Part shown: positions 2,498 to 57,716 of the stretch, piece by piece
Layout: every line of letters starts with the position of its first letter
Position numbering within the stretch: the first letter of the stretch is position 1
Source of the DNA: Eledone cirrhosa
Taxonomy: Eukaryota
Assembly (NCBI GenBank): GCA_964016885.1
Contig: OZ024749.1
Coordinates: forward strand, 7,130,001 to 7,194,000
Length of the DNA stretch: 64,000 bases
Reading direction: 5' to 3'
Translations under genes and position numbers: made by a program
The notes under the pieces: model-generated
Told to the model about the DNA's origin: nothing
Seen by the model: the letters and a program-made list of their open reading frames with translations, nothing else
Database searches by the model: none

Positions 2498-2556
2498 ATA
2501 TATATATATATATAAACAATGAGTTATTTGGTTTGTTGATTATTCAACAATTATTG

Positions 2557-2617
2557 TATTTTATCTGACGAAAGCGTACTAAAATATTAGTATCCTTGAA
2601 ATACGTATAATAAAATA
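2557..2617 (+). ncRNA. Type I minimal hammerhead ribozyme (family H1)
   Basis: Stem I TATTTTAT/ATAAAATA; core CTGACGA (2565-2571); stem II AAGcGTACTAA-AATA-TTAGTATcCTT; GAAA; palindromic stem III TACGTA; AUA triplet, cleavage predicted after 2609. Confidence 0.8.
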
Positions 2618-2787
2618 AATATGGTTTTATAAAGATATTTTCCATTTATTAATATTATGTATACATATATATAATATATTCACTGCGTATAACTTCATGA
2701 TTCACAATATAACGTTAGGTTTGCAGTAAATATATTTTAACCCTATTAAATCTGTTAGATTGCCAGGGATAAATATGAGGAAGGTAT

Positions 2788-2830
2788 ACGGTGTTGATGA
2801 CAGCTAACAAGCTAGAAACTAGTTCATCGT
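2788..2830 (+). ncRNA. Degenerate minimal hammerhead motif (family H2)
   Basis: Stem I ACGGTG/CATCGT; core TTGATGA (C3>U); stem II cAGCT-AACA-AGCTa; GAAA; palindromic AACTAGTT; GUU triplet. Confidence 0.55.
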
Positions 2831-3312
2831 TCCTTTGTCAGTGTTGAACAAAAGGGCAACGATGGTTGCCGAACACTGTATGGCTTAATTCGAACAAACC
2901 GAATTAAACAAACCGAACATTATAATAAATGTTCGGTAAACCCATATATATATATATATGTGCATGTATGTATATACATACTACTGTATGTCCGTATACA
3001 TATATGTATGTACGTATACATACTTATAATATGAATATTGCTTTGTTAAAACTCTATATATTCAAATTTCTTTTTGGCTGGAAAACTTTACACACAAATA
3101 ACACCATTTTTTAAACTATGAATTCATTATAAAAATCACAACTTTCAACACAACTGAAACTATATTTTTTGGACTGCAATGAACTACATTTGTAAAGGTA
3201 ACGTTTTGTCTTGATATTCTAATGAGTGATATATATTATCTGTTCTGCATGATCCTATCATTGCATTGAGCTAAAATACACTTAGTAAGTGAGTAAAATG
3301 TTACTCTCATTC

Positions 3313-3402
3313 TGCCTTTCATCCTCAGGGGGTCGATAAAATAAAGTACCAGTAATGTACTGGGATAATTGCTGGCCTTGTGCCAAAAGTAGAAACAATT
3401 AT
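3313..3402 (+). mobile_element. SINE family A 3' fragment
   Basis: GCCTTTCATCC..GGGGTCGATAAAATAAAGTACCAG..TTGTGCCAAAAGTAGAAACAATTAT. Confidence 0.8.
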
Positions 3403-3405
3403 ATA

Positions 3406-3468
<63 letters not shown>

Positions 3469-3470
<2 letters not shown>

Positions 3471-3657
3471 CGGAGGAAATGTGGTAAGGAACCAGGTGGA
3501 CCATAACGCACCAAAGTACTCCATACTTAGGGTAGTAGAGTGGGTAATAGGAACGAGTAGGACCCCGACGGCTGAGCTCAAGCCGTTTCGACAGCTAATT
3601 CTGGACTGAATTAGCCGTCGAAACGGCTTGAGCTCAGCCGTTGGGGTCCTACTCATT

Positions 3658-3660
<3 letters not shown>
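3469..3660. mobile_element. (TA)n-embedded foldback element carrying the 3' half of a hammerhead (family H8, Penelope-like pLTR remnant)
   Basis: Inverted arms around 3602-3607. Arms read GAAA-CGGCT-TGAGCTC-AGCCG-TC/TT (stem III + GUC/GUU). Related copies at 4484-4607, 5893-6080 and 57002-57130. Confidence 0.6.
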
Positions 3661-3694
<34 letters not shown>

Positions 3695-3755
3695 AAATAA
3701 AAAGAGTAAAGACTCCTTTTGGTCACGAATGACCATGGAATTTGAACCTAGAAAG

Positions 3756-3822
<67 letters not shown>

Positions 3823-3823
<1 letters not shown>

Positions 3824-4100
3824 ATCATCATCCAGATTTTGGTTATGCAGGACACAATTAATCCCTAAGTAGGGGTGGGCATTGTTTTATGTGATTCTGT
3901 CAACTGGTCTCACTTGGACCAGGCCAAGCGTCCAGCCAAGTCCTTTTTGGTCTTCCTGGACCTCTACTACCTCCTGGATTAACATTCATCACTTTGCTGA
4001 TCCAGCCTCCGCTGCACTCAACATGGCTGTACCAGCGCACGACTCTCATGTGAAGCACAACCTTGAGGTCGTCGACCAGCCGTCTTTTAAGGAGCTCAGT
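3823..4100 (-). mobile_element. 5'-truncated RTE-clade LINE 3' end (distinct family)
   Basis: Minus-strand translation ..RVVRWYSHVECSGGWISKV..GSRGPGRPKRTW matches the RTE C-terminal R.RW.GHV..RGRP..TW motif. Short (GAT)n tail abuts (TA)n. Confidence 0.7.
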
Positions 4101-4110
4101 ATATATATAT

Positions 4111-4460
4111 GGAGGCATATGGCTTAGTGGTTAGAGCATTGACCTTGCAATCAAAAGTTTGTGAGTTCAATTCTCAGACCGGGTGATGTGTTGTTTCCTT
4201 GAGCAAGACACTTTATTTCACATTGCTCCAGTTTACTCAGCTGTAGAAATGAGATGATAGGGACTGGGGTCCCTATCATTCCACTGCAAAGTGGTCGTGG
4301 AGGTGCCACGGTAAAATAGCACCCAGCACTCACTGTAAATGAGGTTGGTGTTAGGAAGGGCATCCAGCTGTAGAAATCAAGCCAGAATCAGTTCCCCCCC
4401 CCCCCACCTTGCAAGCAGGGAAAAGCGGACGTAAAGTAAAATGAATGATGAATGAAATGA
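4111..4460 (+). mobile_element. SINE family B, full length
   Basis: Near-identical to 2159-2497; flanked by (TA)n. Confidence 0.85.
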
Positions 4461-4483
4461 TATGTATATATATATATATATAT

Positions 4484-4605
4484 GGGAAGAAAAGAGTCAG
4501 GACCTCGATGGCTGAGCTCCGGCCGTTTCGACAGCTAGATCTTCTCTAAGTATTGAGTACTCTGGTGCATTATGGTCCACCTGGTTTCTCACCAGATTTT
4601 CTTTG

Positions 4606-4607
<2 letters not shown>
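4484..4607. mobile_element. Family H8 element, internally inverted fragment
   Basis: First half is collinear with 3548-3598; second half is the reverse complement of 3469-3530. (TA)n on both sides. Confidence 0.65.
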
Positions 4608-4641
<34 letters not shown>

Positions 4642-4644
<3 letters not shown>

Positions 4645-5880
4645 AAGTTCTAATTTGTAGGAAAGAAAACAAGGCGGCGGTCCATTCTGGGAAATGGTCA
4701 TGCTCGGTGTGTAGGAAAGGCGTAGGTAGAAACTCCATTTTATGTCCTAAATGCAAAGTATGGGTGCATAAAAGATGTAGTGGGATCACAGGTAAGCTAA
4801 CTAAGAACATAGATTTTACATGTGGCCGGTGTTCTGGTGCAATAAGTAGCAGCAAGTGCCCACAAAATACTAGCTCTTTCAATTGCGCAGAGGGTTCTAT
4901 AGAAATAGTGGACAGCTTCCGTTACCTGGGCGATAAAATCAGCAGTGGGGGAGGGTGCTCTGAAAGTACAGTAGCTAGAGTCAGAACTGGTTGGAAAAAG
5001 TTCAGAGAGCTTATACCACTATTAGCTGCTAAAGGGTTCTCCCTAAAAATGAAAGGCAGGTTGTACGATGCCTGCATACGAACAGCAATGCTGCATGGCA
5101 GTGAGACCTGGGCATTGTGTGCAGAGGATATACGCAGACTAGAGAGGAACGAAGCTTGCATGCTCCGCTGGATGTGTAACAGTAATATATGTGAACGGCA
5201 AAGCATAAACGAACTAAGGAAAAAATTAGAGATAAGAGGGATCAGATGTTGTTTACTCAAGAGAAGGCTACGTTGGTATGGACACGTGATGCGCATGAAA
5301 ATCGATAGCTGTATAACAAAGTGCAGGGCAATAAAGATAGACGGTAGTCACGGAATAGGCAGACCTAGAAAAACCTGGGACGAGCTGATAAACTCCGACA
5401 TCACACACTTACACCTCTCCAAGACAATGTCACTGGACCGAGACCTTTGGCGGTACTCAGTAACAGAGAAGACCCGCCTTACCTAAATATATAGTAAAAC
5501 CTACTCCAACCAGTAGGCATCTCTAACAAAATACACCCCGTCCCACCACCACCACCCCCACCCCATCCACACCACCCCGTTCTATGTAAAGTTATGTTGG
5601 TGCCGCGCCATAGGCCGAAACAAATGAGATCGTGTAGGTGTCACGACAAAAAAACACAGTCCACGCTGTAATGTGGCCGTGTAGGCAACACGGTAAAAAC
5701 CTCCCAGACCCACACTGTAAATGTGGTTGGTGTTAGGAAGGGCATCCAGCTGTAGAAAACCTGCCAGACAGTCCTATGCGAGCAAGACAACCACTCTTGC
5801 CTCAAGTGGGAAAACCCCCGTCCAAACCCATGCAAGCGTGGAACACGGACGTGAACCGTTGATGATGATGATGATGATGA
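4642..5880 (+). mobile_element. 5'-truncated RTE LINE, sister subfamily of the full-length element (PHD finger, RT domain 7, C-terminus, 3' UTR, (GAT)n tail)
   Basis: Open frame to the stop at 5486 aligns with roughly aa 755-1035 of the 12196 ORF. The ORF-track N-terminus (4572-4641) is microsatellite read-through. Confidence 0.92.
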
Positions 5881-5892
5881 TATATATATATA

Positions 5893-6076
5893 ACGAAGGA
5901 AATGTGGTAAGGAACCAGGTGGACCATAACGCACCAAAGTACTCAATACTTAGGGTAGTAGAGTGGGTAATAGGAACGAGTAGGACCCCAACGGCTGAGC
6001 TCAAGCTGTTTCGACGGCTAATTCTGGACTCTGTCCAGAATTAGCCGTTGAATCAGCCGTCGGGATCCTACTCGTT

Positions 6077-6080
<4 letters not shown>
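5893..6080. mobile_element. Family H8 foldback element
   Basis: Near-identical to 3469-3660. Central hairpin GACGGCTAATTCTGGAC-TCT-GTCCAGAATTAGCCGTT. Confidence 0.65.
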
Positions 6081-6113
<33 letters not shown>

Positions 6114-6382
6114 TTTAATTTAACGAGGTATCATTTAAGGTAATCCAAGTAGAGGTTATCAGTACTCTGTGTCGAGGATAATTTTAACGTTCGGCGTTGT
6201 TTGACTCAACAAGAAGTTTCCACAGTTGTGGTGACGTGGCCTTTTACAAACAGCAGTTTTTAGACACACCAGACTAATGAAACATTCCTTAATACTTTGA
6301 ATAAACCCTATTGTACAGCCGATCCATGTTATTCTGCACTCATATATATATTCACACACATATACGTATATGTATATATATT

Positions 6383-6418: not shown

Positions 6419-6531
6419 ATCATCATTTCATTTTACGTTCGCTTTTTCCCTGCTTGCAAGGGTGGGACGGGAACTATATATATATATACAATGTAAATAA
6501 TAATCAAAGAGTGTTTAATCTTTCAAACATT

Positions 6532-6589
6532 TAATAACTAACAATCGTTTCATCCCAGCACAAGGCAGGGATAATCATCAGAGTTATTA
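6532..6589 (-). ncRNA. Hammerhead motif (family H3) in foldback element 6488-6720
   Basis: Minus strand: TAATAACT CTGATGA tt ATCCC..GGGAT GAAA CGATTG TT AGTTATTA. 8-bp stem I, two extra nt after the core, near-palindromic stem III. Confidence 0.65.
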
Positions 6590-6771
6590 CAAAAGTTAAA
6601 CACAAATATAGGATCAAATCTTTGTCACAAGAACATTCCTGCCTTGCGTTAGGATGAAACGATTGTTAGTTTTTAAATGTTTGAAAGATTAAACACTCTT
6701 AGGTTATTATTTACATTGTACATATATATATATATATATATGATATATATACATATATATATTTGAAAAGG

Positions 6772-6832: not shown

Positions 6833-6998
6833 GTAGGAGGTGAGTTTTATTGTAGCACAATAAAGCAATGCAAATATCGGATAAGTATCACTCTACACTT
6901 TTTCCCCATCTCATACATCAATCTTAAATTATTTTTCATATGTTGATTTAAAACTTCACTATTCACAAGTGTTTTTTAAGCTTCATATCATGTATCCC

Positions 6999-7069
6999 TA
7001 TTTTATCTGATGAAAACGCAAATATCATCCCATGATGATATTTGTTTTTGAAATGTGCATAATAAAATA
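6999..7069 (+). ncRNA. Hammerhead ribozyme (family H4) in element 6832-7103
   Basis: TATTTTAT CTGATGA AAAcGCAAATATCATC-CCAT-GATGATATTTGTtTTT GAAA TGTGCA TA ATAAAATA. Cleavage predicted after 7061. Confidence 0.8.
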
Positions 7070-7101
7070 CTTGGAACTCTTTTAACCATCTTTTGATCTT
7101 T

Positions 7102-7145
<44 letters not shown>

Positions 7146-8088: not shown

Positions 8089-8255
8089 ACATGCCAACAC
8101 AAGTGCAAGAATGAGGGGCTCATTCTACTGACATGGCTTAAAAGAGGCTGTTTGCATAATTTCAAACGAAAAACGCAGATTACATTTATTGTATTCAGCC
8201 ATGTAGAGCGATAACTTTTTGTTTTATAATATATATATATAGTTTTAATATAGCT

Positions 8256-8350
8256 GAGATTCTACAGGACTAGAATTGTTTCATTCTTTAGAAATCATCA
8301 GGAATCCCTGATGATTTCTAAAGAATGAAACAGTTCTAGTCCTGTAGGAT
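8256..8350. ncRNA. Two divergent, overlapping hammerhead motifs (family H5)
   Basis: Plus: ATCC CTGATGA tTTC-TAAA-GAAt GAAA CAG-TTCTAGTC-CTG TA GGAT (8304-8350). Minus: GGGATTC CTGATGA..GAAA CAA..CTG TA GAATCTC (8308-8256). Confidence 0.65.
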
Positions 8351-8431
8351 CTCATCTATATTAAAACATTTATACTCTGCTATTGAGTACCTTACTTACT
8401 GTGGTTACCTCCGATTCAACCCGGAATAATG

Positions 8432-8455
<24 letters not shown>

Positions 8456-8462
<7 letters not shown>

Positions 8463-9332
8463 GTGAGGTTTTTTTTACAAAATGAAAAACAACCGCGGTG
8501 TCCTACACGAGTGAAAGTATAAAGAAAAAGAGATGAAATCGAAAATGCAACTAGAGTCTTATTTTTTTAAATAAGGGTGCGAAAATGTAATGAAAACTTG
8601 TTCACATGACAGCCAAATTTCATTTATAACCAATCAAATCACGTTTATTAAAAAAAAGCCTTCGTGAGCCACCTTTTTTTTAAGTAAAGAAATTCAAACA
8701 CACACAACACACACAAGCACACAAATAAACATACATATCTTTACTTTCTTTATTCAATAGAAAATCTGAATTCTGACACCCCAGCGAACTAACCATATTC
8801 ACTGAACCAGAACAATTCTTCCATCCCTTTCTCTTGACCATTATCTTTCACTTATCATAAAATTCTCTAAAAAGGCTACAGAATGGATTTCAAATAAGGG
8901 CACGGAAATTTAATGAAAACTTGTTCACGTGACAGCATTAATTTCATTTATAACCAACCAAAAAAAAGCCTTCGTGAGCCCCTTTTTTCAAGTAAAAAGA
9001 AATTCAAACACTCATATTTGAAAAAAGAACCTGTGAGAACCCCCCCTCTTATTTGAAGAACTATTGTAACGCGAACTGGTGCAAAATTTATTATAATTAT
9101 TGACAAACCAATCAAATTACTTCTCGAAAAACCTGGCATTTCGAGCCACTTTTTCCATATAAAACAAGTAACATTCAGAGACCAACCAGATGTGAGAAAA
9201 ACCACAGACCCTCCATCTCAACTCACCTTTTGAAAAGCAGAAGAACTGCGAAACCGGTAAAGGAACCAAATAAATATATATATTTAAAAAAAAAATAAGA
9301 CTCCAGTTGCATTTTCGATTTCATCTCTTTTT

Positions 9333-9339
<7 letters not shown>
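8456..9339 (+). mobile_element. Non-coding Penelope-like element (family H6) with inverted 5' segment and internal duplication
   Basis: (TA)n flanks. 8518-8568 is inverted relative to 9286-9339. ~8567-8700 is duplicated at ~8892-9012. 9197-9339 is near-identical to 48017-48159. Confidence 0.65.
9226..9263 (+). ncRNA. Minimal hammerhead, U3-A8 core variant (family H6)
   Basis: CCTT TTGAAAA GCAG-AAGAA-CTGC GAAA CCGG TA AAGG. Palindromic ACCGGT stem III; GUA triplet. Confidence 0.75.
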
Positions 9340-9386
<47 letters not shown>

Positions 9387-9426
9387 GATATTAAATAAAT
9401 GGAAACTATATTTATAAAACCATATT

Positions 9427-9492
9427 TATTTCATTATATATATTTCAGGGATATCATATTAAAAATATGGTATGCCTTCTTCAGACAAAATA
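9427..9492 (-). ncRNA. Hammerhead (family H1)
   Basis: Minus: TATTTTGT CTGAAGA AGGcATAcCATATT-TTT-AATATGaTATcCCT GAAA TATATA TA ATGAAATA. Confidence 0.75.
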
Positions 9493-9897
9493 CAATATAA
9501 ACAGTCTTATAAATAGATAGATTTGACATACCTTACAACTTCAACTTCCATTTAAAAAGTTGATTTGGTAGTGAAAAATGTTAGGGACAGTTATAAAAAG
9601 AAAGAAAGAAAGAAAGCGAAGAAAAAGAAGAAATGCATGCAACGAAAAACAGAGAGAGATAGATATAGAGAGATAGATAGAGAGAGAGAAGAAATTCATG
9701 TAAAGAAAAAACAGAGAGAGATAGATAGAGAGAGAAAAAAACACAGAGGGAGATAGATAGTGTTTTTCTCAAAGTCTCAAACACTGAGTGTATTGGACAT
9801 CATTAGAAACAATATTTCAATTGGTTTTTCCATTGTTGATACTATCTACCAGTTGCAACTCATGGTAGAATGTGTAACATATAATAAAGTGCCTTGT

Positions 9898-12142: not shown

Positions 12143-15100
12143 TAGGGATGGATGAGCTGGGAATACACGAGCAACTCTGAATCAATAGATGAAATATGAA
12201 TCTGCGAGCTACCAAGCACCCACGTGAAGCGCCAACCCAGAGACCCTCCCCTACGAGTGTCGACAAATGCCCAAAACTCCGAGTTGGTACCATCAATGTA
12301 GGCTCAATGAAAGGAAGAGCAGGAGAAATCGTAGAAATGCTAGAGCGAAAGGAAGTTGATGTATGCTGTGTGCAAGAGACTAGATGGAGAGGAGGGTCTG
12401 CTAGAGTCCTTGTAGGAAAAAGCCAGTGCTACAAATTTTTCTGGGTGGGAAATGACGATGGGATGGGTGGTGTAGGTATACTATTAGCTGACAAGTGGGT
12501 AGATAAAGTAATCTCAGTGTACAGGGTAAATGCAAGAATCATTAAACTCAGACTAGTCCTGAATAAGACAATTACCACAATAATATCAGCTTACGCACCC
12601 CAATCGGGGCTGCCAGACGAACTTAAGGATAGGTTTTACGAGTCCCTAATACACACTACTGCTCTAACAGACGACAAGGACTTCCTAATCATTGCAGGAG
12701 ATTTTAACGGACACGTAGGTAAACACTGCGACGGCTTCGATAGAGTACATGGAGGCCATGGAGTTGGCACAAGGAATGAGGAAGGATTCAGACTTCTAGA
12801 ATTCTGCGACGCCAATGACATGTCGATATGTAACACAAACTTTAAAAAACCCGACAACCACCTGATCACCTATAGATCAGGGGAGCACTCTAGTCAGTTA
12901 GATTTTATCCTCATCAGAGGACGTGACAGATGGACGGTCGTAAACACAAAAGCCTTCCCTAGTGAGGAATGTACATCCCAACATAGCTTAGTTGTCAGCG
13001 ACCTCACGGTCAGAACTAGACGAGCCCTGAAACAGAGGCCAACCTGGAGAAGAAAGATCTGGAAGCTGAAAGTCCCCTCAACCAGTAACAGATTTAAAGA
13101 TATTTTACTCAACGCCTACGACAGTAAAGAAGAACAGATAGAGACATTTAACGTAGAAGAGAACTGGGAGTTCCTAAAAAATAACTTACTAGAGGCGACG
13201 GATGAGGTTTGTGGCTGGAGTAAGACCTCAAGCAGGAGGAGAGTGACTTGGTGGTGGAACAATAAGGTAGATGAAGCAGTCAAGGCCAAGAGACAGGCAT
13301 GGAAAGAATGGAAGAACGGGGGGAGCAGGGTACATTACATAGAGACCAAGAGGGAAGCTAGGCGACAAGTATACTTAGCTAGGAGGGAAGCAGAGGATAG
13401 AAAATTCAAGCATGTTTTACAACGTGAGGACCAGAAACAGGAGGTATTCAAGATTGCGAGGCAGTGTGTCAGAGATAGTTGTGATGTCATTGGAGAGAAG
13501 TGTATCCGGAATGATAAAGGTGAGCTTGCCCTCACAAGTGCTGAGAAGAAAGATGCATGGAAGAGTCATTATGATAGATTACTAAATGAGGAGAATGCAT
13601 GGGAAGAAGAGACCCTACCCCACGTAGACCCTATAGAGGGACCAGCAGTACAAGTCAGCGGCAGCGTAGTAAGTAAGGCAATCAGAGATATGAAGATAGG
13701 GAAGGCAACCGGTCCATCGGGTATAGCTGCCGAGATGCTGAAGGCATCTGGGTCTGTAGGTCACACTATAACCACACGTATCGTTAACCAGGTAATACTA
13801 GAGGGGGCCATACCAAAAGATTGGTGCAGTAGCATCATTGTCAACTGCTACAAAGGTAAAGGCGATGCACTAGATAGAGGAAACTATAGAGGTATAAAGT
13901 TGATGGACCAGGTCATGAAAGTAACAGAAAGAGTTATAGCACAGCTGATTAGGGACCGGGTGAATATAGACGAGATGCAATTTGGGTTTGTTCCAGGGAA
14001 AGGCACCACTGATGCGCTCTTCCTTGTGAGGCAATTACAGGAAAAGTACCTAGCTAAAAGTAAGCCACTCTACTTGGCATTTGTCGACCTTGAGAAAGCC
14101 TTTGACAGAGTTCCACGTGCAGTAATCTGGTGGGCTCTTAGAAAACTAGGAGTAGATGAATGGCTTGTGAAAGCGGTACAAGCCATGTATAGGGGAGCAG
14201 TCAGCAAAGTTAGGATTGGCAATGAGTATAGCGAGGAATTTAGCGTACAGGTTGGGGTCCACCAGGGCTCTGTTCTTAGCCCTCTCCTGTTCATCATAGT
14301 CCTGCAGGCAATAACGGAGGAGTTTAAGACCGGATGCCCATGGGAACTCCTGTATGCTGATGACCTCGCACTCATAGCTGAATCTATGGTAGAACTAGAG
14401 AATAAATTCCAAACCTGGAAGCAGGGACTAGAGAGAAAGGGCCTCAAAGTCAACATGACAAAGACTAAGGTCCTTATAAGTAGACGAGAAAACAGAACCC
14501 AGATCCCCTCAGGGAAATGGCCTTGCTCAGTATGTAGGAAAGGTGTAGGTAGGAACTCCATTCTTTGCCCCAAATGCAAACAATGGGTACACAAGAGATG
14601 TAGCGGGATCTCAGGAAGCTTAATTAAGAATGTAGGATTCACATGCAGCAGCTGTGCTGAAACAGCAAGCAAACAGCCACAGGAAACAAGTACCACCAAT
14701 CTCTGGGAGGGCCCTGTAGAAACAGTAGACAGCTTCTGCTACCTAGGTGACCGAATTAGCAACGGAGGTGGGTGCTCAGAAAGTACAATAACTAGGGTAA
14801 GAACGGGATGGAAGAAGTTTAGGGAACTACTACCACTGCTAGCTGCAAAAGGCTTCTCCCTCAGAATGAAAGGCAGACTGTATGATGCGTGTATCCGAAC
14901 AGCGATGTTGCATGGTAGTGAGACCTGGGCGCTGAAGGTGGAAGACTTACGTAGATTAGAGAGAAACGAAGCCTGCATGCTCCGATGGATGTGTAACAGT
15001 AATATACGTGAACGACAAAGCATAAATGAATTGAGAGAGAGACTGAGCATAAGAGGAATCAAATGCTGCGTGCAGGAGAGGCGGTTACGCTGGTATGGAC

Positions 15101-15621
15101 ATGTGATGCGTATGAAGGATGACAGCTGCATAAAAAGGTGCAGAGCACTAGAAGTTGATGGAAACCGCGGAGTGGGGAGACCCAAGATGACTTGGGATGA
15201 GGTGATAAAAGCCGACCTTACCCAACTACACCTCTCAAAGTCAATGACACACGACCGTGACTTCTGGCGTCACGCAGTAATACAGGGTACCCGACCTCCC
15301 ATGGGTACATGCTGAAGCATATAAACGATATGCCCCCCCCCCCCCCACCGCAAGGTGGTCGTGGAGGTGCCACGGCAAAACAGCACCCAGCCCACACTGT
15401 AAAGTGGACGTGTAGGCGCCACGAAAAAGCACCCAGCACTCACTGTAAATGAGGTTGGTGTTAGGAAGGGCATCCAGCTGTAGAAATCAAGCCAGATCAG
15501 TTCCTGTATGAGCAAGGCATGGTCAGCCGACCAGACACTGCCCACAACAGGACAACCCGTCTAACCCATGCTAGCGTGGAAGAACGGACGTAAAACGGTG
15601 ATGATGATGATGATGATGATG
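12143..15621 (+). mobile_element. Near-full-length RTE-clade LINE
   Basis: Single long ORF, ~300-nt 3' UTR with internal ~48-bp repeats, (GAT)n tail. Inserted within the minisatellite. Confidence 0.95.
12196..15315 (+). CDS. RTE LINE protein: APE endonuclease + reverse transcriptase with embedded PHD-type zinc finger
   Basis: APE motifs VGTINV, VQETRW, SAYAP, GDFNGH, LDFIL, SQHSLV. RT motifs [33 protein letters not shown] (14353-14364), FCYLG. RTE C-terminus [15 protein letters not shown]. Uninterrupted 1039 aa. Confidence 0.95.

Positions 15622-16264: not shown

Positions 16265-16298
<34 letters not shown>
15622..16298. repeat. (TA)n/(CA)n/CATG microsatellite array
   Basis: Same unit type as 11345-12142. 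Confidence 0.9.
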
Positions 16299-16302
<4 letters not shown>

Positions 16303-16343
16303 GAGAGTAAAACAAAGAATCCTTTAATACATCAAAAGTTTTT

Positions 16344-16388
16344 ATTAGCCGACAATGTTTCGTCCTATTAAGGACTCATCAGGGCAAT
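16344..16388 (-). ncRNA. Canonical minimal hammerhead ribozyme (family H7)
   Basis: Minus: ATTGCC CTGATGA GTCCT-TAAT-AGGAC GAAA C-ATT-G TC GGCtAAT. Perfect core, GUC triplet. Lies in a ~145-bp island (16299-16443) between (TA)n runs. Confidence 0.85.
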
Positions 16389-16677
16389 CAAAACAACAAG
16401 AGAGAGGGTGTTTGACTCAAACACGCTCCAGTATTCTAATCCTTATATATATATATATATGATACACATAAATATGTATATATATATATAGATACACATA
16501 AATATGTATATATATATAAACATACATACACACGTAAACAAGCAGGGAAAAAGTGGACGTAAAATGGAAATGAAAAAAAAAATGAAAAAAAAAAAATATA
16601 TATATATATATAAACATACATACACACGTAAACAAGTATATATATATATATATAAACATACATACACACGTAAACAA

Positions 16678-20610: not shown

Positions 20611-23600
20611 TGGTTGTTAAACCTGGATATCTATTGTGAAGCTAAGTAAAAGAGTATTGGTGGTTGTTAAACCTGGATATCTGTTGTGAAGCTAAGTAAA
20701 AGAGTATTGGTGGTTGTTAAACCTGGATATCTATTGTGAAGCTAAGTAAAACAGTATTGGTGGTTGTTAAACCTGGATATCTGTTGTGAAGCTAAGTAAA
20801 ACAGTATTGATGGTAGTTAAACCTGGATATCTATTGTGAAGCTAAAAACAGTATTGGTGGTTGTTAAACCTGGATATCTGTTGTGAAGCTAAGTAAAACA
20901 GTAGTGGTGGTTGTTAAACCTGGATATCTGTTGTGAAGCTAAGTAAAACAGTATTGATGGTAGTTAAACCTGGATATCTATTGTGAAGCTAAAAACAGTA
21001 TTGGTGGTTGTTAAACCTGGATATCTGTTGTGAAGCTAAGTAAAACAGTATTGCTGGTTGTTAAACCTGGATATCTGTTGTGAAGCTAAGTAAAACAGTA
21101 TTGATGGTAGTTAAACCTGGATATCTATTGTGAAGCTAAAAACAGTATTGGTGGTTGTTAAACCTGGATATCTGTTGTGAAGCTAAGTAAAACAGTATTG
21201 CTGGTTGTTAAACCTGGATATCTGTTGTGAAGCTAAGTAAAACAGTATTGCTGGTTGTTAAACCAGGATATCTGTTGTGAAGCTAAGTAAAACAGTATTG
21301 CTGGTTGTTAAACCTGGATATCTATTGTGAAGCTAAGTAAAACAGTATTGGTGGTAGTTAAACCTGGATATCTGTTGTGAAGCTAAGTAAAACAGTATTG
21401 CTGGTTGTTAAACCTGGATATCCGTTGTGAAGCTAAGTAAAACAGTATTGCTGGTAGTTAAACCTGGATATCTGTTGTGAATCTAAGTAAAACAGTATTG
21501 CTGGTAGTTAAACCTGGATATCTGTTGTGAAGCTAAGTAAAACAGTATTGCTGGTAGTTAAACCTGGATATCTGTTGTGAAGCTAAGTAAAACAGTATTG
21601 CTGGTAGTTAAACCTGGATATCTGTTGTGAAGCTAAGTAAAACAGTATTGGTGGTTGTTAAACCTGGATATCTGTTGTGAAGCTAAGTAAAACAGTATTG
21701 GTGGTTGTTAAACATGGATATCTGTTGTGAAGCTAAGTAAAACAGTATTGGTGGTTGTTAAACCTGGATATCTGTTGTGAAGCTAAGTAAAACAGTATTG
21801 GTGGTTGTTAAACCTGGATATCTGTTGTGAAGCTAAGTAAAACAGTATTGGTGGTAGTTAAACCTGGATATCTGTTGTGAAGCTAAGTAAAACAGTATTG
21901 GTGGTAGTTAAACCTGGATATCTGTTGTGAAGCTAAGTAAAACAGTATTGGTGGTAGTTAAACCTGGATATCTGTTGTGAAGCTAAGTAAAACAGTATTG
22001 GTGGTAGTTAAACCTGGATATCTGTTGTGAAGCTAAGTAAAACAGTATTGGTGGTTGTTAAACCTGGATATCTGTTGTGAAGCTAAGTAAAACAGTATTG
22101 GTGGTTGTTAAACCTGGATATATGTTGTGAAGCTAAGTAAAACAGTATTGGTGGTTGTTAAACCTGGATATCTGTTGTGAAGCTAAGTAAAAGAGTATTG
22201 GTGGTTGCTAAACCTGGATATCTATTGTGAAGCTAAGTAAAACAGTATTGGTGGTTGTTAAACCTGGATATCTGTTGTGAAGCTAAGTAAAACAGTATTG
22301 GTGGTAGTTAGACCTGGATATCTATTGTGAAGCTAAGTAAAACAGTATTGGTGGTAGTTAAACCTGGATATCTGTTGTGAAGCTAAGTAAAACAGTATTG
22401 GTGGTTGTTAAACCTGGATATCTATTGTGAAGCTAAGTAAAACAGTATTGATGGTAGTTAAACCTGGATATCTATTGTGAAGCTAAAAACAGTATTGGTG
22501 GTTGTTAAACCTGGATATCTGTTGTGAAGCTAAGTAAAACAGTATTGCTGGTTGTTAAACCTGGATATCTGTTGTGAAGCTAAGTAAAACAGTATTGCTG
22601 GTTGTTAAACCTGGATATCTGTTGTGAAGCTAAGTAAAACAGTATTGCTGGTTGTTAAACCTGGATATCTATTGTGAAGCTAAGTAAAACAGTATTGGTG
22701 GTAGTTAAACCTGGATATCTGTTGTGAAGCTAAGTAAAACAGTATTGCTGGTTGTTAAACCTGGATATCTGTTGTGAAGCTAAGTAAAACAGTATTGCTG
22801 GTAGTTAAACCTGGATATCTGTTGTGAATCTAAGTAAAACAGTATTGCTGGTAGTTAAACCTGGATATCTGTTGTGAAGCTAAGTAAAACAGTATTAGTA
22901 TTGCCGGTAGTTAAACCTGGATATCTGTTGTGAAGCTAAGTAAAACAGTATTGGTGGTTGTTAAACCTGGATATCTGTTGTGAAGCTAAGTAAAACAGTA
23001 TTGGTGGTTGTTAAACATGGATATCTGTTGTGAAGCTAAGTAAAACAGTATTGGTGGTTGTTAAACCTGGATATCTGTTGTGAAGCTAAGTAAAACAGTA
23101 TTGGTGGTTGTTAAACCTGGATATCTGTTGTGAAGCTAAGTAAAACAGTATTGATGGTAGTTAAACCTGGATATCTGTTGTGAAGCTAAGTAAAACAGTA
23201 TTGGTGGTTGTTAAACCTGGATATCTGTTGTGAAGCTAAGTAAAACAGTATTGGTGGTAGTTAAACCTGGATATCTGTTGTGAAGCTAAGTAAAACAGTA
23301 TTGGTGGTAGTTAAACCTGGATATCTGTTGTGAAGCTAAGTAAAACAGTATTGGTGGTAGTTAAACCTGGATATCTGTTGTGAAGCTAAGTAAAACAGTA
23401 TTGGTGGTAGTTAAACCTGGATATCTGTTGTGAAGCTAAGTAAAACAGTATTGGTGGTTGTTAAACCTGGATATCTGTTGTGAAGCTAAGTAAAACAGTA
23501 TTGGTGGTTGTTAAACCTGGATATCTGTTGTGAAGCTAAGTAAAACAGTATTGGTGGTTGTTAAACCTGGATATCTGTTGTGAAGCTAAGTAAAACAGTA

Positions 23601-35600: not shown

Positions 35601-37528
35601 TATCTGTTGTGAAGCTAAGTAAAACAGTATTGGTGGTTGTTAAACCTGGATATCTGTTGTGAAGCTAAGTAAAACAGTATTGGTGGTAGTTAAACCTGGA
35701 TATCTGTTGTGAAGCTAAGCAAAACAGTATTGCTGGTAGTTAAACCTGGATATCTGTTGTGAAGCTAAGTAAAACAGTATTGGTGGTTGTTAAACCTGGA
35801 TATCTGTTGTGAAGCTAAGTAAAACAGTATTGGTGGTAGTTAAACCTGGATATCTGTTGTGAAGCTAAGTAAAACAGTATTGCTGGTAGTTAAACCTGGA
35901 TATCTGTTGTGAAGCTAAGTAAAACAGTATTGGTGGTTGTTAAACCTGGATATCTGTTGTGAAGCTAAGTAAAACAGTATTGCTGGTAGTTAAACCTGGA
36001 TATCTGTTGTGAAGCTAAGTAAAACAGTATTGGTGGTTGTTAAACCTGGATATCTGTTGTGAAGCTAAGTAAAACAGTATTGGTGGTTGTTAAACCTGGA
36101 TATCTGTTGTGAAGCTAAGTAAAACAGTATTGGTGGTAGTTAAACCTGGATATCTGTTGTGAAGCTAAGTAAAAGAGTATTGGTGGTAGTTAAACCTGGA
36201 TATCTGTTGTGAAGCTAAGTAAAACAGTATTGCTGGTAGTTAAACCTGGATATCTGTTGTGAAGCTAAGTAAAACAGTATTGGTGGTTGTTAAACCTGGA
36301 TATCTGTTGTGAAGCTAAGTAAAACAGTATTGGTGGTAGTTAAACCTGGATATCTGTTGTGAAGCTAAGTAAAACAGTATTGGTGGTAGTTAAACCTGGA
36401 TATCTATTGTGGAGCTAAAAACAGTATTGGTGGTTGTTAAACCTGGCTATCTGTTGTGGAGCTAAGTAAAACAGTATTGGTGGTTGTTAAACCTGGATAT
36501 CTGTTGTGAAGCTAAGTAAAACAGTATTGGTGGTAGTTAAACCTGGATATCTGTTGTGAAGCTAAGTAAAACAGTATTGGTGGTTGTTAAACCTGGATAT
36601 CTCTTGTGAAGCTAAGTAAAACAGTATTGGTGGTAGTTAAACCTGGATATCTGTTGTGAAGCTAAGTAAAACAGTATTGGTGGTAGTTAAACCTGGATAT
36701 CTATTGTGGAGCTAAAAACAGTATTGGTGGTTGTTAAACCTGGATATCTGTTGTGGAGCTAAGTAAAACAGTATTGGTGGTAGTTAAACCTGGATATCTG
36801 TTGTGAAGCTAAGTAAAACAGTATTGATGGTTGTTAAACCTGGATATCTGTTGTGAAGCTAAGTAAAACAGTATTGATGGTTGTTAAACCTGGATATCTG
36901 TTGTGAAGCTAAGTAAAACAGTATTGGTGGTAGTTAAACCTGAATATCTGTTGTGAAGCTAAGTAAAACAGTATTGATGGTTGTTAAACCTGGATATCTG
37001 TTGTGAAGCTAAGTAAAACAGTATTGGTGGTTGTTAAACCTGGATATCTGTTGTGGAGCTAAGTAAAACAGTATTGGTGGTAGTTAAACCTGGATATCTG
37101 TTGTGAAGCTAAGTAAAACAGTATTGGTGGTTGTTAAACCTGGATATCTGTTGTGGAGGTAAGTAAAACAGTATTGGTGGTAGTTAAACCTGGATATATG
37201 TTGTGAAGCTAAGTAAAACAGTATTGATGGTTGTTAAACCTGGATATCTGTTGTGAAGCTAAGTAAAACAGTATTGGTGGTAGTTAAACCTGGATATCTA
37301 TTGTGGAGCTAAAAACAGTATTGGTGGTTGTTAAACCTGGATATCTGTTGTGAAGCTAAGTAAAACAGTATTGGTGGTTGTTAAACCTGGATATCTGTTG
37401 TGAAGCTAAATTGTAAAACAGTATTGGTGGCTGTTAAACCTGGATATCTGTTGTGAAGCTAAGTAAAACAGTATTGCTGGTTGTTAAACCTGGATATCTG
37501 TTGTGAAGCTAAAAACAGTATTGCTGGT
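20611..37528. repeat. 50-bp satellite array, roughly 340 monomers
   Basis: Consensus GGTGGT(T/A)GTTAAACCTGGATATCTGTTGTGAAGCTAAGTAAAACAGTATT, with 47-bp and 52-bp indel variants. No spacers and no ORF in the track. Confidence 0.98.
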
Positions 37529-37639
37529 ATAAATATATTTGGAATGTTGTTTTAGAATTAAACAAGAAGCTACATCTATTTATCACCATTTATATTTTAT
37601 AGAGTAAAGTTGAAAAAGGTTATTAACAATTTATTACTT

Positions 37640-47811: not shown

Positions 47812-48152
47812 TTAGAAAGTGAGGTTTTTTTTACAAAATGAAAAATAACCGAGGTGTCCTACACGAGTGAAAGTATAAAGAAAAAGAGATGAAATCGAAA
47901 ATGCAACTGAAGTCTTATTTTTTTTAAAAAAATATATATATTTATTTGGTTCCTTTACCGGTTTCGCAGTTCTTCTGCTTTTCAAAAGGTGAGTTGAGAT
48001 GGAGGGTCTGTGGTTGAAAAACCACAGACCCTCCATCTCAACTCACCTTTTGAAAAGCAGAAGAACTGCGAAACCGGTAAAGGAACCAAATAAATATATA
48101 TATTTAAAAAAAAAATAAGACTTCAGTTGCATTTTCGATTTCATCTCTTTTT

Positions 48153-48159
<7 letters not shown>
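47812..48159. mobile_element. Family H6 foldback element with two U3-A8 hammerheads (47952-47989 minus, 48046-48083 plus)
   Basis: ~140-bp near-perfect inverted arms (47874-48015 / 48020-48159) around a GAAA loop. (TA)n flanks. Confidence 0.8.
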
Positions 48160-48193
<34 letters not shown>

Positions 48194-48196
<3 letters not shown>

Positions 48197-48325
48197 AAAT
48201 ACTTGGAACTCTTTTAACCATCTTTTGATCTTATATTATTTTTATACTCCAGTCCTATAAACTGTGGAGTGCTACTTATCCGATATTTGCATTGCTTTAT
48301 CGTGCTATAATAAAACTCACCTCCT

Positions 48326-48328
<3 letters not shown>
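48194..48328 (+). mobile_element. Family H4 copy starting at the hammerhead cleavage site
   Basis: Begins ATAAAATACTTGGAACTCTTTTAACC (= 7062 onward). Its 3' part is the reverse complement of 6832-6897. Confidence 0.8.
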
Positions 48329-48387: not shown

Positions 48388-48915
48388 ATTTGCAAAATTT
48401 GAGTATTCTCGGTACAGAAGGTAGCCGTTAGCAACTGTATATTACTTGCAGAGTAACATTTTTTTTTTTTTTAGGGGGGGGAGGATGTAAAGATATAACA
48501 GCAAATTGAATGGAGAGTGTGAAAGAGAGAGGGAGAAAGACGAAAAAAGAGGGGGTTAAAGGGAGGGAGAGAGAGAGGGGAGGAGGAGGCAAGGAGAAAA
48601 ATGTGGATTAGAGCGATGGAGAGATGGATAGAAAGATGAAGTGAAAGATTAACAAGGAATAAGGTACTTGGCGGTATTATACGGCAAATTATTGATAGGG
48701 AGCTGATGATCCAAATACTGCCAAGTATCTCATTCTTGTTAATCTTTCACTATCTTTCTATCCATCGCTCTAATTCACATTTTTCTCCTCACCTCCTCCT
48801 CTCTCGCTCCCTTTAACCCCCTCTTTTCGATTTTTTATATCTTAACCAAAAAAAAACAAATTTTACTATTCAAATAGTATACAGCTGGTAACAATGCTGA
48901 GAATACTTTGCAAAC
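48388..48915. repeat. Long imperfect inverted repeat (foldback element)
   Basis: Arms ~48390-48677 and ~48714-48914; purine-rich left arm, pyrimidine-rich right arm. Confidence 0.75.
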
Positions 48916-49710: not shown

Positions 49711-50234
49711 TAAAATAACAGATTAAAGTTTAAGCAAAGAATCGCTGCTTTCACTCTTAACGGGATCTTTATTTTAATAAATATTTGCTCTACGGTTCTT
49801 ATATATTTATCCTTATCGAGCCCTCTTTGGATTTTAGTCTTCAAATTTATTATTATTACTATATATATATATATAATTATATATATATATATATATATTC
49901 ACCATTAAAATGGCAAGACCTCAGCTGTTGGACACTAACAGTTTACAGTATCATCATCTCCATCATCTCATCATTTAGCATCCATTTTTCCAAGGTTGCA
50001 TGGTGAGACAGGTCGTAGTAAGATTTCATATTAAGGTCTTCATTGATTATACACATTTATGTCCGTTCCACTTGGGTGGCTCAGGATCTATCAATGATAT
50101 AGTTCTAACTGTGTAGAATCAATGAAGACCTCAATGTGAAACCTCACTTTCTTTTTAATATATACACTCTGCCATAGTACAGAGTGATGATTTCAGTACC
50201 TTCCGCAGTAAACCATGTCTCTACTGAACCACTC

Positions 50235-53630: not shown

Positions 53631-53631
<1 letters not shown>

Positions 53632-54978
53632 CATCATCATCATCATCATCACTGTTTAACGTCCATTTTTCCATACTGGTATAGGTTAGGTGAGTTATCC
53701 TGTTGTGAACAATGCTAGGTCAGCTGACCATGTCTTGCTCAGTCAGAACTGATTGTGGCTTCCTTTCTACAGGTGGATGCCCTTTCTAATGTCAACCTCA
53801 TTTACAGTGAGGACTGGGTGCTTTTTGTCGTGATGCCTACACGACCACTTTACAGTGAGGACTGGGTGCTTTTTGTCGTTATGCCTACACAACCACTTTA
53901 CAGTGAGGACTGGGTGCTTTTTGTCGTGATGCCTACACAACCACTTTACAGTGAGGACTGGGTGCTTTTTGTCGTGATGCCTACACGACCACTTTACAGT
54001 GAGGAATGGGTACTTTTTGTCGTGATGCCTACATGACCACTTTACAGTGAGGAATGGGTACTTTTTGTCGTGATGCCTACACAGCCACTTTACAGTGAGG
54101 ACTGGAGACTTTTTGTCGTGATGCCTACATGACCACTTTACAGTGAGGAATGGGTACTTTTTGTCGTGATGCCTACATGACCACTTTACAGTGAGGAATG
54201 GGTACTTTTTGTCGTTATGCCTACACAGCCACTTTACAGTGAGGACTGGAGACTTTTTGTCGTGATGCCTACATGACCACTTTACAGTATGGACTGGAGG
54301 CTTTTTGTCGTTATGCCTACACGACCACTTTACAGTGTGGACTGGGTGCTTTTTGTCGTGATGCCTACACGACCACTTTACAGTGTGGACTGGAGGCTTT
54401 TTGTCGTGATGCCTACACAACCACTTTACAGTGAGGACTGGGTGCTTTTTGTCGTGATGCCTACACAACCACTTTACAGTGAGGACTGGGTGCTTTTTGT
54501 CGTGATGCCTACACAACCACTTCACAGTGAGGACTGGGTGCTTTTTGTCGTGATGCCTACACAACCACTTCACAGTGAGGACTGGGTGCTTTTTGTCGTG
54601 ATGCCTACACAACCACTTTACAGTGAGGACTGGGTGCTTTTTGTCGTGATGCCTACATGACCACTTTACAGTATAGACTGGAGGCTTTTTGTCGTTATGC
54701 CTACACAACCACTTTACAGTGAGGAATGGGTACTTTTTGTCGTGATGCCTACATGACCACTTTACAGTGAGGAATGGGTACTTTTTGTCGTGATGCCTAC
54801 ATGACCACTTTACAGTGAGGAATGGGTACTTTTTGTCGTGATGCCTACATGACCACTTTACAGTGAGGAATGGGTACTTTTTGTCGTGATGCCTACACAG
54901 CCACTTTACAGTGAGGACTGGAGACTTTTTGTCGTGATGCCTACATGACCACTTTACAGTGTGGACTGGAGACTCTTT
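53631..54978 (-). repeat. RTE 3' end whose internal 48-bp unit has expanded to ~24 tandem copies (53798-54978)
   Basis: (CAT)n tail and RTE terminus at 53631-53800, then unit CCACTTTACAGTGAGGACTGGGTGCTTTTTGTCGTGATGCCTACACAA. Confidence 0.9.
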
Positions 54979-55029
54979 ATCATAACACAATGCTCCAGTT
55001 TACTCAAGCATTGGGTTTGCAATGGGGTA

Positions 55030-55323
55030 GGTTGTAATTTCAATTCTCAGACTGGGTAATGCATTGTGTCCTTGAGCAAGACACTTTATTTCACATTGCT
55101 TCAGTTTACTCAGCTGTAGAAATGAGTTGTGACTTCACTGGTGCCAAGCTGTATTGGCCATTGTCTTTCCCTTGGACAACATCGGTGGCATGGAGTGGGG
55201 CAATTGGTTTGCATGGATGACTGCTGGTCTTCCATAAACAACCTTGCCTGGACTTGTGCCTCAGAGGGGAACTTTCTAGGTACAAATCCCATGAACATTT
55301 GTGATTGAAGGGACCCTTTACCC
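55030..55323 (+). mobile_element. CORE-like SINE with a different 3' tail
   Basis: TCCTTGAGCAAGACACTTTATTTCACATTGCT core. 3' end is related to the reverse complement of 3705-3760. Confidence 0.65.
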
Positions 55324-55554
55324 TATATATTTATTTAATCAATTCAAACGTCCGTATAGAGCTAGTAAGCCATGACAGACTAGTGAGAGTATTAAGTACT
55401 TCTTACAATTGGTAATCAAAAAGAGTTAACGAGACAAGTAATAAGAGAAAATATAAAAGCGAAAAAAAATACTATGTTCAATACTTGGCAAACTAGTGTT
55501 TACCATTCTAGGTACTCCATGTATGTTCTTTGTTTTTATTCATTGTTTTTATTA

Positions 55555-55585
<31 letters not shown>

Positions 55586-55684
55586 CTATATTATATATAT
55601 ATATACATATATAAATATGTAAACATATATATACATATATAAATATGTGTATATATATATACTATCTATTTATTTATATATATA

Positions 55685-56693
55685 CTAGCTGAATTACCCG
55701 GCGTTACCCGGGTTACTGATGTTCTTATTGAGATTACTATGGATATGTAGATATGTTTTTGTTTTTTTTTCCTCATAATTATTTCATAATATCTATATCT
55801 TATTGAAAAAATATCAAAATTGTAATAATAGAATTTAGAAAAGAAAATCTGTCAAACTTGAAGCACCTTAGGGTAAACAATATTCATTGTGTAATTTTTT
55901 GTTGGTGAATAAATTGTTGCTACACACTCTCACACATACACTCACATACATATACTAAAAGAGACACAGCCACATTCACGCAGACACACGCAAAGCTTTT
56001 CACCTCATTTTTTGTCAGTCACCACATATGTATATATATGTGTAGATGAGTGTGTGTGTATTTAATAATGTACCTAATGAACGCGCACACACACACACAG
56101 ACATACATATTCATATACAAAATTTGGCGTAATGTTTTCTATTGTTTTAATCCAAATGAAATTAAAAATTATCACACATACACTCACACACACTCTCTCG
56201 CTCACAGACACACACACACACACATACAGTCATGAGCACATACAAAGACACACACAGACATACATTCACGCACACCTATCACTTGTCTGTCACAACATAT
56301 GCATCTGTATGTGTAGATGTGTGTGTGTATGTTTAATTGTTTCTGTGTGAAGGTAATGTGTATGCAACTTACTAAGGCTATATGTATGTGTAGATGTGTG
56401 TCTGTGTGTGTTTAATTTTCTGAGGCATAATGTACGTAACGAACTTGCAAACACACATACACACACTCACAGACACATACACACTCATATACAAAATGTG
56501 ACATTGTCGTGGTGGTGTTGGTGGTGGTTTACTATAGTTGACTATAGAAATATTATTTTAGATAAAATGTTATTTTGTTTTAATCCAAATGAAAATAAAA
56601 ATTACATGTTGACACTCGCGGGGTCTAATACTATTACCTTGTAAAATTGATTTGATTTAGTCCAGACAGACAAAGAATTTTATATAGAGAGAG
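55685..56693 (-). mobile_element. Non-autonomous Helitron
   Basis: Minus strand: 5' TCTCT..CTATATAAAATT..(TCTG)n; 3' hairpin ACCCGGGTAACGCCGGGT, then CTAG|T. Internal duplications. Confidence 0.7.
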
Positions 56694-57001
56694 ATAAAAT
56701 GTGTTAAGGTAAGGTTGTATAGAGAAATTAATAAATGACATGATGTATATAAACTAAATTCTATTTTTTATATGTGTATATATGTGTGTATATATGTGTG
56801 TGTATGTGTGTATGTATATATATATATATGTGTGTGTGTGTATATATATGTGTGTTTATATATATGTGTATATATGTGTGTGTATATATATATATATATG
56901 TGTATATATGTGTGTATATATATATATATGTGTATATATATATATATATATGTGTATATATATGTGTATATATGTGTGTATATATGTGTGTATATAAATA
57001 T

Positions 57002-57296
57002 AACAAAGGAATTGTGGTAAGGAACCAGATGGACCATAACGCACCAGAGTACTCAATACTTAGGGTAGTAGATTGGGAAATAGGAAAAAGTATGACCCCG
57101 ACGGCAGAGCTCAAGCCGTTTCAACGGCTTTTTCTGTAAAGTGGACGTGTAGGCACCACGGAAAAAAAAGCAGCCAGCACTCACTGTAAGTGAGGTTGGT
57201 ATTAGGAAGCTCATCCAGCTGTAGAAATCAAGCCAGAATCAGTTGCCGTCCCACCCTTGCAAGCAGGGAAAAAGTGGACGTAAAATGATGATGATA
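57002..57296 (+). mobile_element. Family H8 fragment fused to an RTE/SINE-B 3' end
   Basis: 57002-57130 matches 3469-3597; 57134-57296 matches the LINE 3' UTR and SINE B tail. Confidence 0.75.
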
Positions 57297-57300
57297 TATA

Positions 57301-57716
57301 AACAATGAGTTTGTTGATTATTCAAGAGAATTATGTTCATAATATATATGAAGCGCTCTACAGTAAATTTATCTAGAGCATTATAATATTAATAATAGTA
57401 ATAAATGGAAAATATCACTATAGCATCATATTTATTTTATCATACGTATTTCAAGGATACCAAAGCATAGTATGCTTTCTTCAGATAAAATACAATATTT
57501 GATGTATAAGATAGTGACATACCCAAAGTATAAGCTTTCAACTTCAGCTTACAGTGGGCATCCTGGGTATGCACTTTGGGTATGTCACTATCTTATACAT
57601 CAAATATTGTATATCATCTGATGAAAGCATACCATAATTTGGTATCCTTGAAATACGTATATTGAAATAAATATGATGCTATACTGATATTTTCCATTTA
57701 TTACTATTATTAATAT
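57301..57716. mobile_element. Family H1 foldback element with two hammerheads (57433-57492 minus, 57610-57669 plus)
   Basis: Inverted arms ~57385-57529 / ~57573-57716. Cores CTGAAGA and CTGATGA, GAAA TACGTA, triplets AUG and AUA. Confidence 0.8.

Follow-up and report, generated by a model that had tools for sequence, protein, structure and literature searches.

TA-bounded islands with hammerhead ribozymes in a contig of Eledone cirrhosa: probable ends of Penelope-like elements

The DNA analysed here, referred to as the window, is the 64-kb stretch at positions 7130001-7194000 of contig OZ024749.1, within the 3.0-Gb assembly of Eledone cirrhosa. Scattered over it are short islands with whole or partial hammerhead ribozyme folds, which sort into eight families by self-comparison and genome searches; seven or eight had been proposed from the letters of the window. 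Seven of these families very probably represent the ribozyme-and-tail ends of endonuclease-bearing Penelope-like elements (PLEs) inserted into (TA)n runs, and the eighth is a likely retrozyme; a mechanism is joined to this identification below. The tail is the terminal 3′ segment, 62-100 nt long depending on the family, which some copies or arms carry and others lack. The islands are as follows, with families designated by letters, positions given in the window, and U3-A8 or U3-G8 denoting the bases at core positions 3 and 8.

2515..2656 (+): family A (Hydra-type) insertion, tail piece at 2515-2549 (-), inverted arm at 2540-2656 (+), hammerhead at 2557-2617
2778..3028 (+): family B, partial monomer of a 420-480-bp tandem unit, hammerhead core at 2794 with U3-G8; likely retrozyme
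3470..3662 (-): family N (Hydra-type) fold-back, tail arm at 3611-3470 (-), tail-less arm at 3608-3662 (+); both arms begin within stem II, leaving just the 3′ half of a U3-A8 hammerhead
4488..4602 (+): family N remnant, tail piece at 4546-4602 and an inverted short arm
5893..6081 (-): family N fold-back, arms at 6030-5893 (-) and 6033-6081 (+)
6486..6720 (-): family C (Hydra-type) fold-back, hammerhead arm with core at 6581 (-), 5′-cut arm at 6638-6720 (+)
6833..7112 (+): family D (Hydra-type), tail piece at 6901-6833 (-), inverted arm at 6896-7112 (+), hammerhead at 6999-7069
8241..8432 (+): family E (Hydra-type) fold-back, two head-to-head hammerheads with cores at 8301 (-) and 8308 (+), tail on the + arm
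8456..9339 (+): family K (Neptune/Nematis-type), tail piece at 8568-8456 (-), long inverted arm at 8560-9339 (+) from the pseudo-long terminal repeat (pseudo-LTR), U3-A8 core at 9230
9374..9498 (-): arm of the family A clan, hammerhead core at 9484
16298..16443 (-): family I (Hydra-type, young), tail-less arm at 16402-16298 (-) with a canonical hammerhead, core at 16382; tail piece at 16403-16443 (+)
47812..48159 (-): family K fold-back, two U3-A8 hammerheads with cores at 47985 (-) and 48050 (+), tail on the - arm
48191..48327 (+): family D 3′ piece with tail, ribozyme cut off
57007..57136 (-): family N tail arm, half hammerhead
57293..57716 (-): family A fold-back, two damaged hammerheads at 57433 (-) and 57610 (+), tail on the - arm

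Hammerheads were searched for with a type I descriptor (stems I to III, core CUGANGA or UUGANAA, NUH, score of at least 12). The original prediction had counted at least 13 complete folds in the window, 11 of which passed this descriptor (cores 2565+, 2794+, 6581-, 7007+, 8301-, 8308+, 9230+, 9484-, 16382-, 47985- and 48050+). The remaining two clearly belong to the 2557 family but are damaged, the fold at 57433 (-) by a G at cleavage position 17 and the fold at 57610 (+) by two mismatches, one of them U-U at the stem I base. A first, stricter descriptor gave 4 matches in the window. When the 47,081 non-satellite bases were put through 100 dinucleotide shuffles, carried out block-wise, an earlier version lacking the U3-A8 core matched 0.56 times on average (maximum 2), compared with 8 matches in the real sequence. 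With the final descriptor, 40 random 10-kb stretches of the genome (400 kb) yielded 48 matches, 19 of them in two tandem arrays, against 2 to 8 in 10 shuffles; the noise floor of the descriptor is about 5 per 400 kb. Based on these counts, on the 21 matches found in the 20 stretches adjoining the window (200 kb) and on the 10 found in the window itself at the random-genome threshold, the window is only about two to three times richer in hammerheads than the dispersed genome average. By rough extrapolation, the genome total would be of the order of 10^5 hammerhead motifs.

The stems of these folds covary. Among 10 copies of the clan comprising the 2557 and 6999 folds, 95.9% of cells were paired, compared with 32-54% in slid controls, and two-sided changes were found in 11 of the 22 pairs, the palindromic stem III among them, a count inflated by kinship. 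Core positions 3 and 8, pooled over 339 motifs, read CG in 295, UA in 16, UG in 16 and CA in 12, the threshold dropping short-stem K motifs; U3-A8 pairing was seen at the family level only, in K, N and one relative of K. All three family K folds have this core, fold 2794 has U3-G8 while most of its kin carry C3, and folds 2794 and 6581 have a U at position 17. Several folds possess a stem I of 8-10 bp or a longer stem III, and in the pair at 8256 stem III is long and non-palindromic. The half-motifs are 5′-cut copies, namely those of family N and the second arm at 6638; those at 3470, 5893 and 57007 retain the 3′ half of a hammerhead that is whole in long N copies and has the U3-A8 core and a long stem II. 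An Rfam scan of the window contained no hammerhead among the 150 of 243 matches listed, which were dominated by TA repeats, and RF00163 matches the 16344 family genome-wide. Single-sequence folding gave z-scores from -0.3 to -3.8, modest for several folds. With a conserved core, three stems and covariation, the motifs qualify on sequence as type I hammerheads; self-cleavage is a prediction, with poor activity expected from single ribozymes and better activity from dimers. They are likely passengers in the end fragments that contain them.

We then turn to the elements from which these ends would derive. No Penelope-like open reading frame (ORF) was detected in the window by tblastn with Neptune-, Poseidon- and Hydra-type frames, as had been stated together with the proposal that coding partners lie elsewhere. 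Such partners do exist: seven of the eight families continue, in longer genomic copies, into frames with a reverse transcriptase (RT) and, at the C-terminus, a GIY-YIG endonuclease, six being Hydra-type and one Neptune/Nematis-type. For each family 715-4352 first-look genomic candidates were obtained and 40 scored, except for K, reached through a GIY-YIG search (10,596 candidates, 150 scored). Simple repeats inflate the raw lengths of shared-DNA extensions, and only those at 85% identity or more were counted. The loci retrieved in this way are numbered with the prefix L.

Family K is, by the motifs of its frame, a Neptune/Nematis-type PLE. The K end of the window is present at 89-99% identity in 9 of 45 GIY-YIG loci, and in locus L046 two direct copies of the ribozyme end flank a 938-aa frame, in which RVT_1 scores just below the cut-off and GIY-YIG above it. 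This frame carries the marks of the Neptune/Nematis type, i.e. a CX4CxxC linker, CCHH-type residues, GLKF and DKG. The other six families (A, C, D, E, I and N) are assigned to the Hydra clade, all of them displaying the CxCX5CX5C linker and none a CxxC within the GIY-YIG hairpin in the frames read. Family I is the clearest case, and its sequence identities mark it as young: at least 39 other genomic copies are identical over 105 nt, and both parts of the window insertion at 16298-16443 are 100% identical to a genomic reference copy. At L180, two direct ribozyme ends lying 4,862 bp from each other enclose an intact 898-aa ORF with RWR, DKT and CxCX5CX5C, the ribozyme end being identical to that of 16298-16443. 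RT motifs were read in two further families, RWR and DKT in E, RWI and DKT in D. For family A, a Hydra-type frame was found by tblastn in 4 of 20 upstream loci, and by motif in one more; for C, in 5 of 30 loci, in DNA common to C copies; for D and N, upstream in DNA common to copies (tblastn and motif); for E, through a 2.3-kb microsatellite-rich 3′ region. Altogether, the families exhibit the features that define endonuclease-bearing PLEs: a single ORF with RT and GIY-YIG, pseudo-LTR tandems (L046, L054, L180), inverted 5′-truncated copies and an optional tail. A protein search with the E frame returned 516 relatives, mostly unnamed and none with a clade name.

Two candidate frames were rejected. 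A Neptune-type frame upstream of one C copy (L145/L351) is not that of C, the shared C DNA leading instead into the Hydra-type frame in the 5 of 30 loci mentioned above, and a Poseidon-type frame near A copies (L056, L085) terminates in a TA run of its own. The 3′ region of family E (L344:3480-5850, L345:830-4690) is rich in TA and TG microsatellites, and in L345 it has been invaded by another Penelope-like element. Further PLE families occur outside the window, Poseidon-like with a CX4C linker, Neptune-type with a 1096-aa frame, and Hydra-type (loci L347, L056, L065, L085; L048; L348; L063); the element type of L063/L045 also bears a U3-A8 core. Within the window, the segment 8167-8228 matches DNA at most 250 bp from another hammerhead family (core CTGATGA, stem II agggtgataccca) in 4 of 6 loci, and is likely the tail of a ninth family. 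A short TA-bounded inverted piece at 49715-49858, with matches in 35 retrieved loci and no link to a ribozyme or ORF, is probably the tail of a further family. At 48545-48827 lies a 280-bp imperfect palindrome with CTGATGA near its centre, lacking the GAAA half and having no copy in the retrieved genomic loci.

Family B stands apart. Its tandem units of 420-481 bp contain one type I hammerhead each; an array with a spacing of 420-426 bp spans an entire random 10-kb stretch (L312), and spacings of 424-481 bp were found in 5 further places. No ORF was found in the sequence common to 32 B loci, and Hydra-type matches near the B copies L201 and L203 were discarded as a B ORF, being outside the shared unit. 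The TA run at 2945 falls inside the B unit, so that TA runs bound the islands, as had been proposed, in seven families and not at the B island (2788). From its sequence organisation family B is likely a non-LTR retrozyme, and alone among the eight it looks non-autonomous. A second retrozyme-like family was seen at L288:8700-10000, where a 311-bp tandem repeat has a minimal hammerhead in each unit.

To define the ends of the islands, copies were mapped against one natural reference copy per family, arms shorter than 30 nt being unseen. Two fixed termini were seen in every PLE family: the true 3′ end and, upstream of it, an internal site at a distance of 62 nt in K, 68-71 in E, 77 in N, 80-81 in C and D, 94 in A and 100 in I. 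When copies retrieved by the search for their own family are set aside, (TA)3 or a longer run adjoins 117 of the 126 true 3′ ends and 124 of the 167 shorter, internal ends, for a background of 8.85%, which bears out the suspected targeting of TA runs. Inverted arms, described earlier as frequent, are the rule. In 155 head-to-head pairs (selected and unselected copies taken together), one arm was tailed in 146, none in 8 and both in 1, and arm identity was higher within an insertion than between insertions in 107 of 122 comparisons. Within a single 20-nt interval per family fall 82 of 119 5′ ends in N, 34 of 47 in E, 16 of 25 in K and 16 of 33 in D, at positions that, counted from the ribozyme core, differ (K -42, D -69, E -4, N +45). 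At these pile-ups the junctions are heterogeneous base by base and often centred on short palindromes. The sequence at the site is CCAGAT in K and E, TCATAT in D and TCATTT/TTAGT in N, reminiscent of initiator motifs. Where K and I copies stand in tandem, the distance from the tail to the ORF start is about 35 and 80 nt, respectively.

These observations lead us to propose, tentatively and a little short of an even call, that PLE integration is two-ended, each strand of the TA run being primed from a different start site, and that most events give cDNAs of 60-270 nt ending at the transcription start. By analogy with the Anolis element (PMC11167929), the element protein would cut both strands of a TA run. 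Reverse transcription would be primed at two start sites flanking the tail, one per strand, producing one tailed and one tail-less arm. Because the ribozyme and tail lie at the mRNA 5′ end, initiation close to that end would run for 60-270 nt and then stop at the 5′ end of the RNA, the pile-up site being the likely transcription start. The two cDNAs would finally be joined head to head via short microhomologies. Given the one-tail rule and the fixed 5′ ends, most mini-elements would therefore be short cDNAs of the mRNA 5′ segment, by-products of autonomous elements, and not a separate non-autonomous guild. The original prediction, correct in its essentials, had left the choice between non-autonomous and 5′-truncated PLE products: the seven PLE families appear as fragments of autonomous elements, and independent non-autonomous families seem reduced to B.

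Several points weigh against this scheme or the identification under it. The C insertion of the window (6486..6720) has two tail-less arms, both ending at the internal terminus, and the higher identity of arms within than between insertions fails in K (2 of 5). Among the short A ends, a TA run adjoins only 31 of 59, probably due to alignments ending prematurely. The 5′ pile-up is established in K, D, E and N and not in A, C and I, the one in A being confounded by reference divergence and query choice and the unselected C and I copies being too few; in addition, the unseen arms below 30 nt trim the downstream side of the 5′-end distribution. The Hydra-type frames get little or no support from Pfam (L176 and L345 match GIY-YIG below the cut-off; L344, L348 and L180 match nothing), so that their assignment rests on motifs and tblastn. 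Finally, the transcription start and ribozyme cleavage are predictions; a search of an RNA index for the K junction listed no run, which we count neither way.

The stereotyped size and 5′ end of the short fold-backs would also suit true non-autonomous families of the type of short interspersed nuclear elements (SINEs) or miniature inverted-repeat transposable elements, transcribed anew from existing copies of themselves, with PLE proteins mobilising them in trans. Tail arms pile up at the same site too, the E copies L159 and L163 share an arm-specific variant, and 20-odd of the 30 best E matches share a near-identical junction, in a search whose query contained that junction. Among unselected copies, however, junctions vary base by base, the arms of one insertion share variants (the 107 of 122 above) as fresh formation predicts, and identical ends run on into ORFs in long copies. 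We consider this explanation unlikely as a general one; it may be partly true, as a solo unit keeping an internal promoter could add copies and supplement the main route. Another possibility, somewhat unlikely in our view, is that the pile-up reflects not the RNA 5′ end but ordinary 5′ truncation at an RT pause or snap-back hairpin, followed by asymmetric deletion at the palindrome centre. Junction centres do often lie on palindromic microhomologies of 2-6 nt, and the N site falls in the stem II loop, but the position of the site relative to the ribozyme stems and cleavage site varies by family (-69, -42, -4, +45), and often neither arm is a subset of the other, the tail arm being shorter at its 5′ end although the tail is found on it alone, which is unexpected from a simple snap-back.

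Short templates might instead be made by ribozyme cleavage itself, as monomeric linear or circular RNAs, in the manner of retrozymes and of the model proposed in PMC4209133 and PMC7229834. This would suit family B, with its tandem 420-481-bp units and the absence of an ORF link in 32 loci. In the seven PLE families, by contrast, neither terminus nor the 5′ pile-up matches the predicted cleavage site, N mini-elements lack half of the core, and cleavage was dispensable for insertion in vitro (PMC11167929), making this origin quite improbable for the islands in general. That the folds arise by chance in AT-rich, palindrome-prone DNA is next to impossible: the modest z-scores of several folds and the noise floor of the descriptor go in that direction, but the counts are 10-14 times those of shuffles, the stems covary, and the position beside PLE ORFs is conserved in seven families.

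Apart from the islands, the window is rich in microsatellites and contains an intact 1039-aa ORF of a long interspersed nuclear element (LINE) at 12196-15315 (+), with APE endonuclease, RT and a PHD finger; the 3′ piece of a relative lies at 4572-5486. A 17-kb array at 20611-37529 consists of 340 copies of a 50-bp unit with 95% matches and a strong GC skew. At 53801-54969, 24 copies of a 48-bp unit were found, a unit which is also part of a common SINE/LINE 3′ sequence elsewhere in the window.

The kind of element described here is already known, and the class is not new, nor hidden as first supposed, because pseudo-LTR hammerheads, opposite-strand pairs, the U3-A8 core, TA targeting, the two start sites and a Hydra family in Octopus have all been published (PMC4209133, PMC8557442 and PMC11167929). 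The value of the present analysis lies in numbers, with many PLE families, mostly of the little-studied Hydra clade, co-existing in the genome and supplying hammerhead motifs of the order of 10^5, and in material, one family having an intact ORF and many identical copies. The statistics of ends, i.e. a single tail per inverted pair and a fixed 5′ end, constrain unresolved steps of PLE integration and constitute a modest mechanistic lead. If true, two-ended integration would account for the abundance of solitary and opposite-strand hammerheads that has long been remarked on in animal genomes, and would give a route from pseudo-LTRs to SINE-like mini-elements and retrozymes. The one-tail rule and the fixed 5′ end were not found in print in our search, although older Penelope papers (Arkhipova 2006, 2013; Pyatkov 2004; Schostak 2008; Luense 2017) may contain them. 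No octopus hammerhead survey was found in the literature search either: the available passages of PMC13282606 and PMC8967140 count octopus Penelope-like elements, with no mention of hammerheads.

Comparison with known systems starts with the minimal hammerheads of metazoan PLE pseudo-LTRs (Cervera and de la Pena 2014, PMC4209133), for which that work reports thousands of solitary motifs from truncated elements, opposite-strand pairs 100-700 bp apart, a U3-A8 core, a palindromic stem III and low dimer activity. The motifs described here are likewise type I and have a stem III that is short and palindromic; the genome holds many families, truncated elements account for the motifs being mostly single, pairs again face opposite strands 100-700 bp apart, and the U3-A8 variant occurs. 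They differ in that several have a stem I of 8-10 bp or a longer stem III, and in their high density, roughly estimated at the order of 10^5. Family B resembles animal non-LTR retrozymes, which PMC7229834 and the preprint 10.64898/2026.07.22.740005 treat as pseudo-LTR derivatives, in its non-coding tandem units with one type I hammerhead each. Its unit of 420-480 bp is slightly larger than the 350-390 bp of mussel retrozymes, and it is known here from DNA, without an identified parent PLE.

For the Hydra clade, Craig et al. 2021 (PMC8557442) describe inverted 5′ copies, tails, a (TA)n preference and Hydra-1_Obim of Octopus bimaculoides with a hammerhead. The six families share with the clade the C-terminal GIY-YIG, RW(R/K/I), DKT, the CxCX5C linker, a 3′ hammerhead, (TA)n and 5′-truncated inverted copies. 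Different here is the presence of at least six families in one window, each near or above thousands of candidates, one being young and intact. The size of less than 3 kb given descriptively for the clade is exceeded by family I (4.9 kb), and family E has its 2.3-kb microsatellite-rich 3′ region. They also differ from Hydra-1_Obim, as its ribozyme motif was not found in the retrieved genomic loci. With Neptune/Nematis elements as described there, family K shares GLKF, DKG, CX4CxxC, CCHH-type residues, the pseudo-LTR tandem and the TA target; it has a U3-A8 core, and its motifs assign it to Neptune/Nematis jointly. Lastly, for the Anolis Poseidon element in vitro, Frangieh et al. 2024 (PMC11167929) report that both target strands are cut and extended, that reverse transcription starts at two internal RNA sites flanking the tail, just inside the pseudo-LTR/ORF junction, and that the protein is a predicted dimer. 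The elements studied here are similar in having the ribozyme and tail at the pseudo-LTR/ORF junction, two termini around the tail and an AT-rich target. Their tails are longer, 62-100 nt compared with 30-40, and the rule of one tail per inverted pair, as well as the fixed 5′ end, are genomic observations made here.

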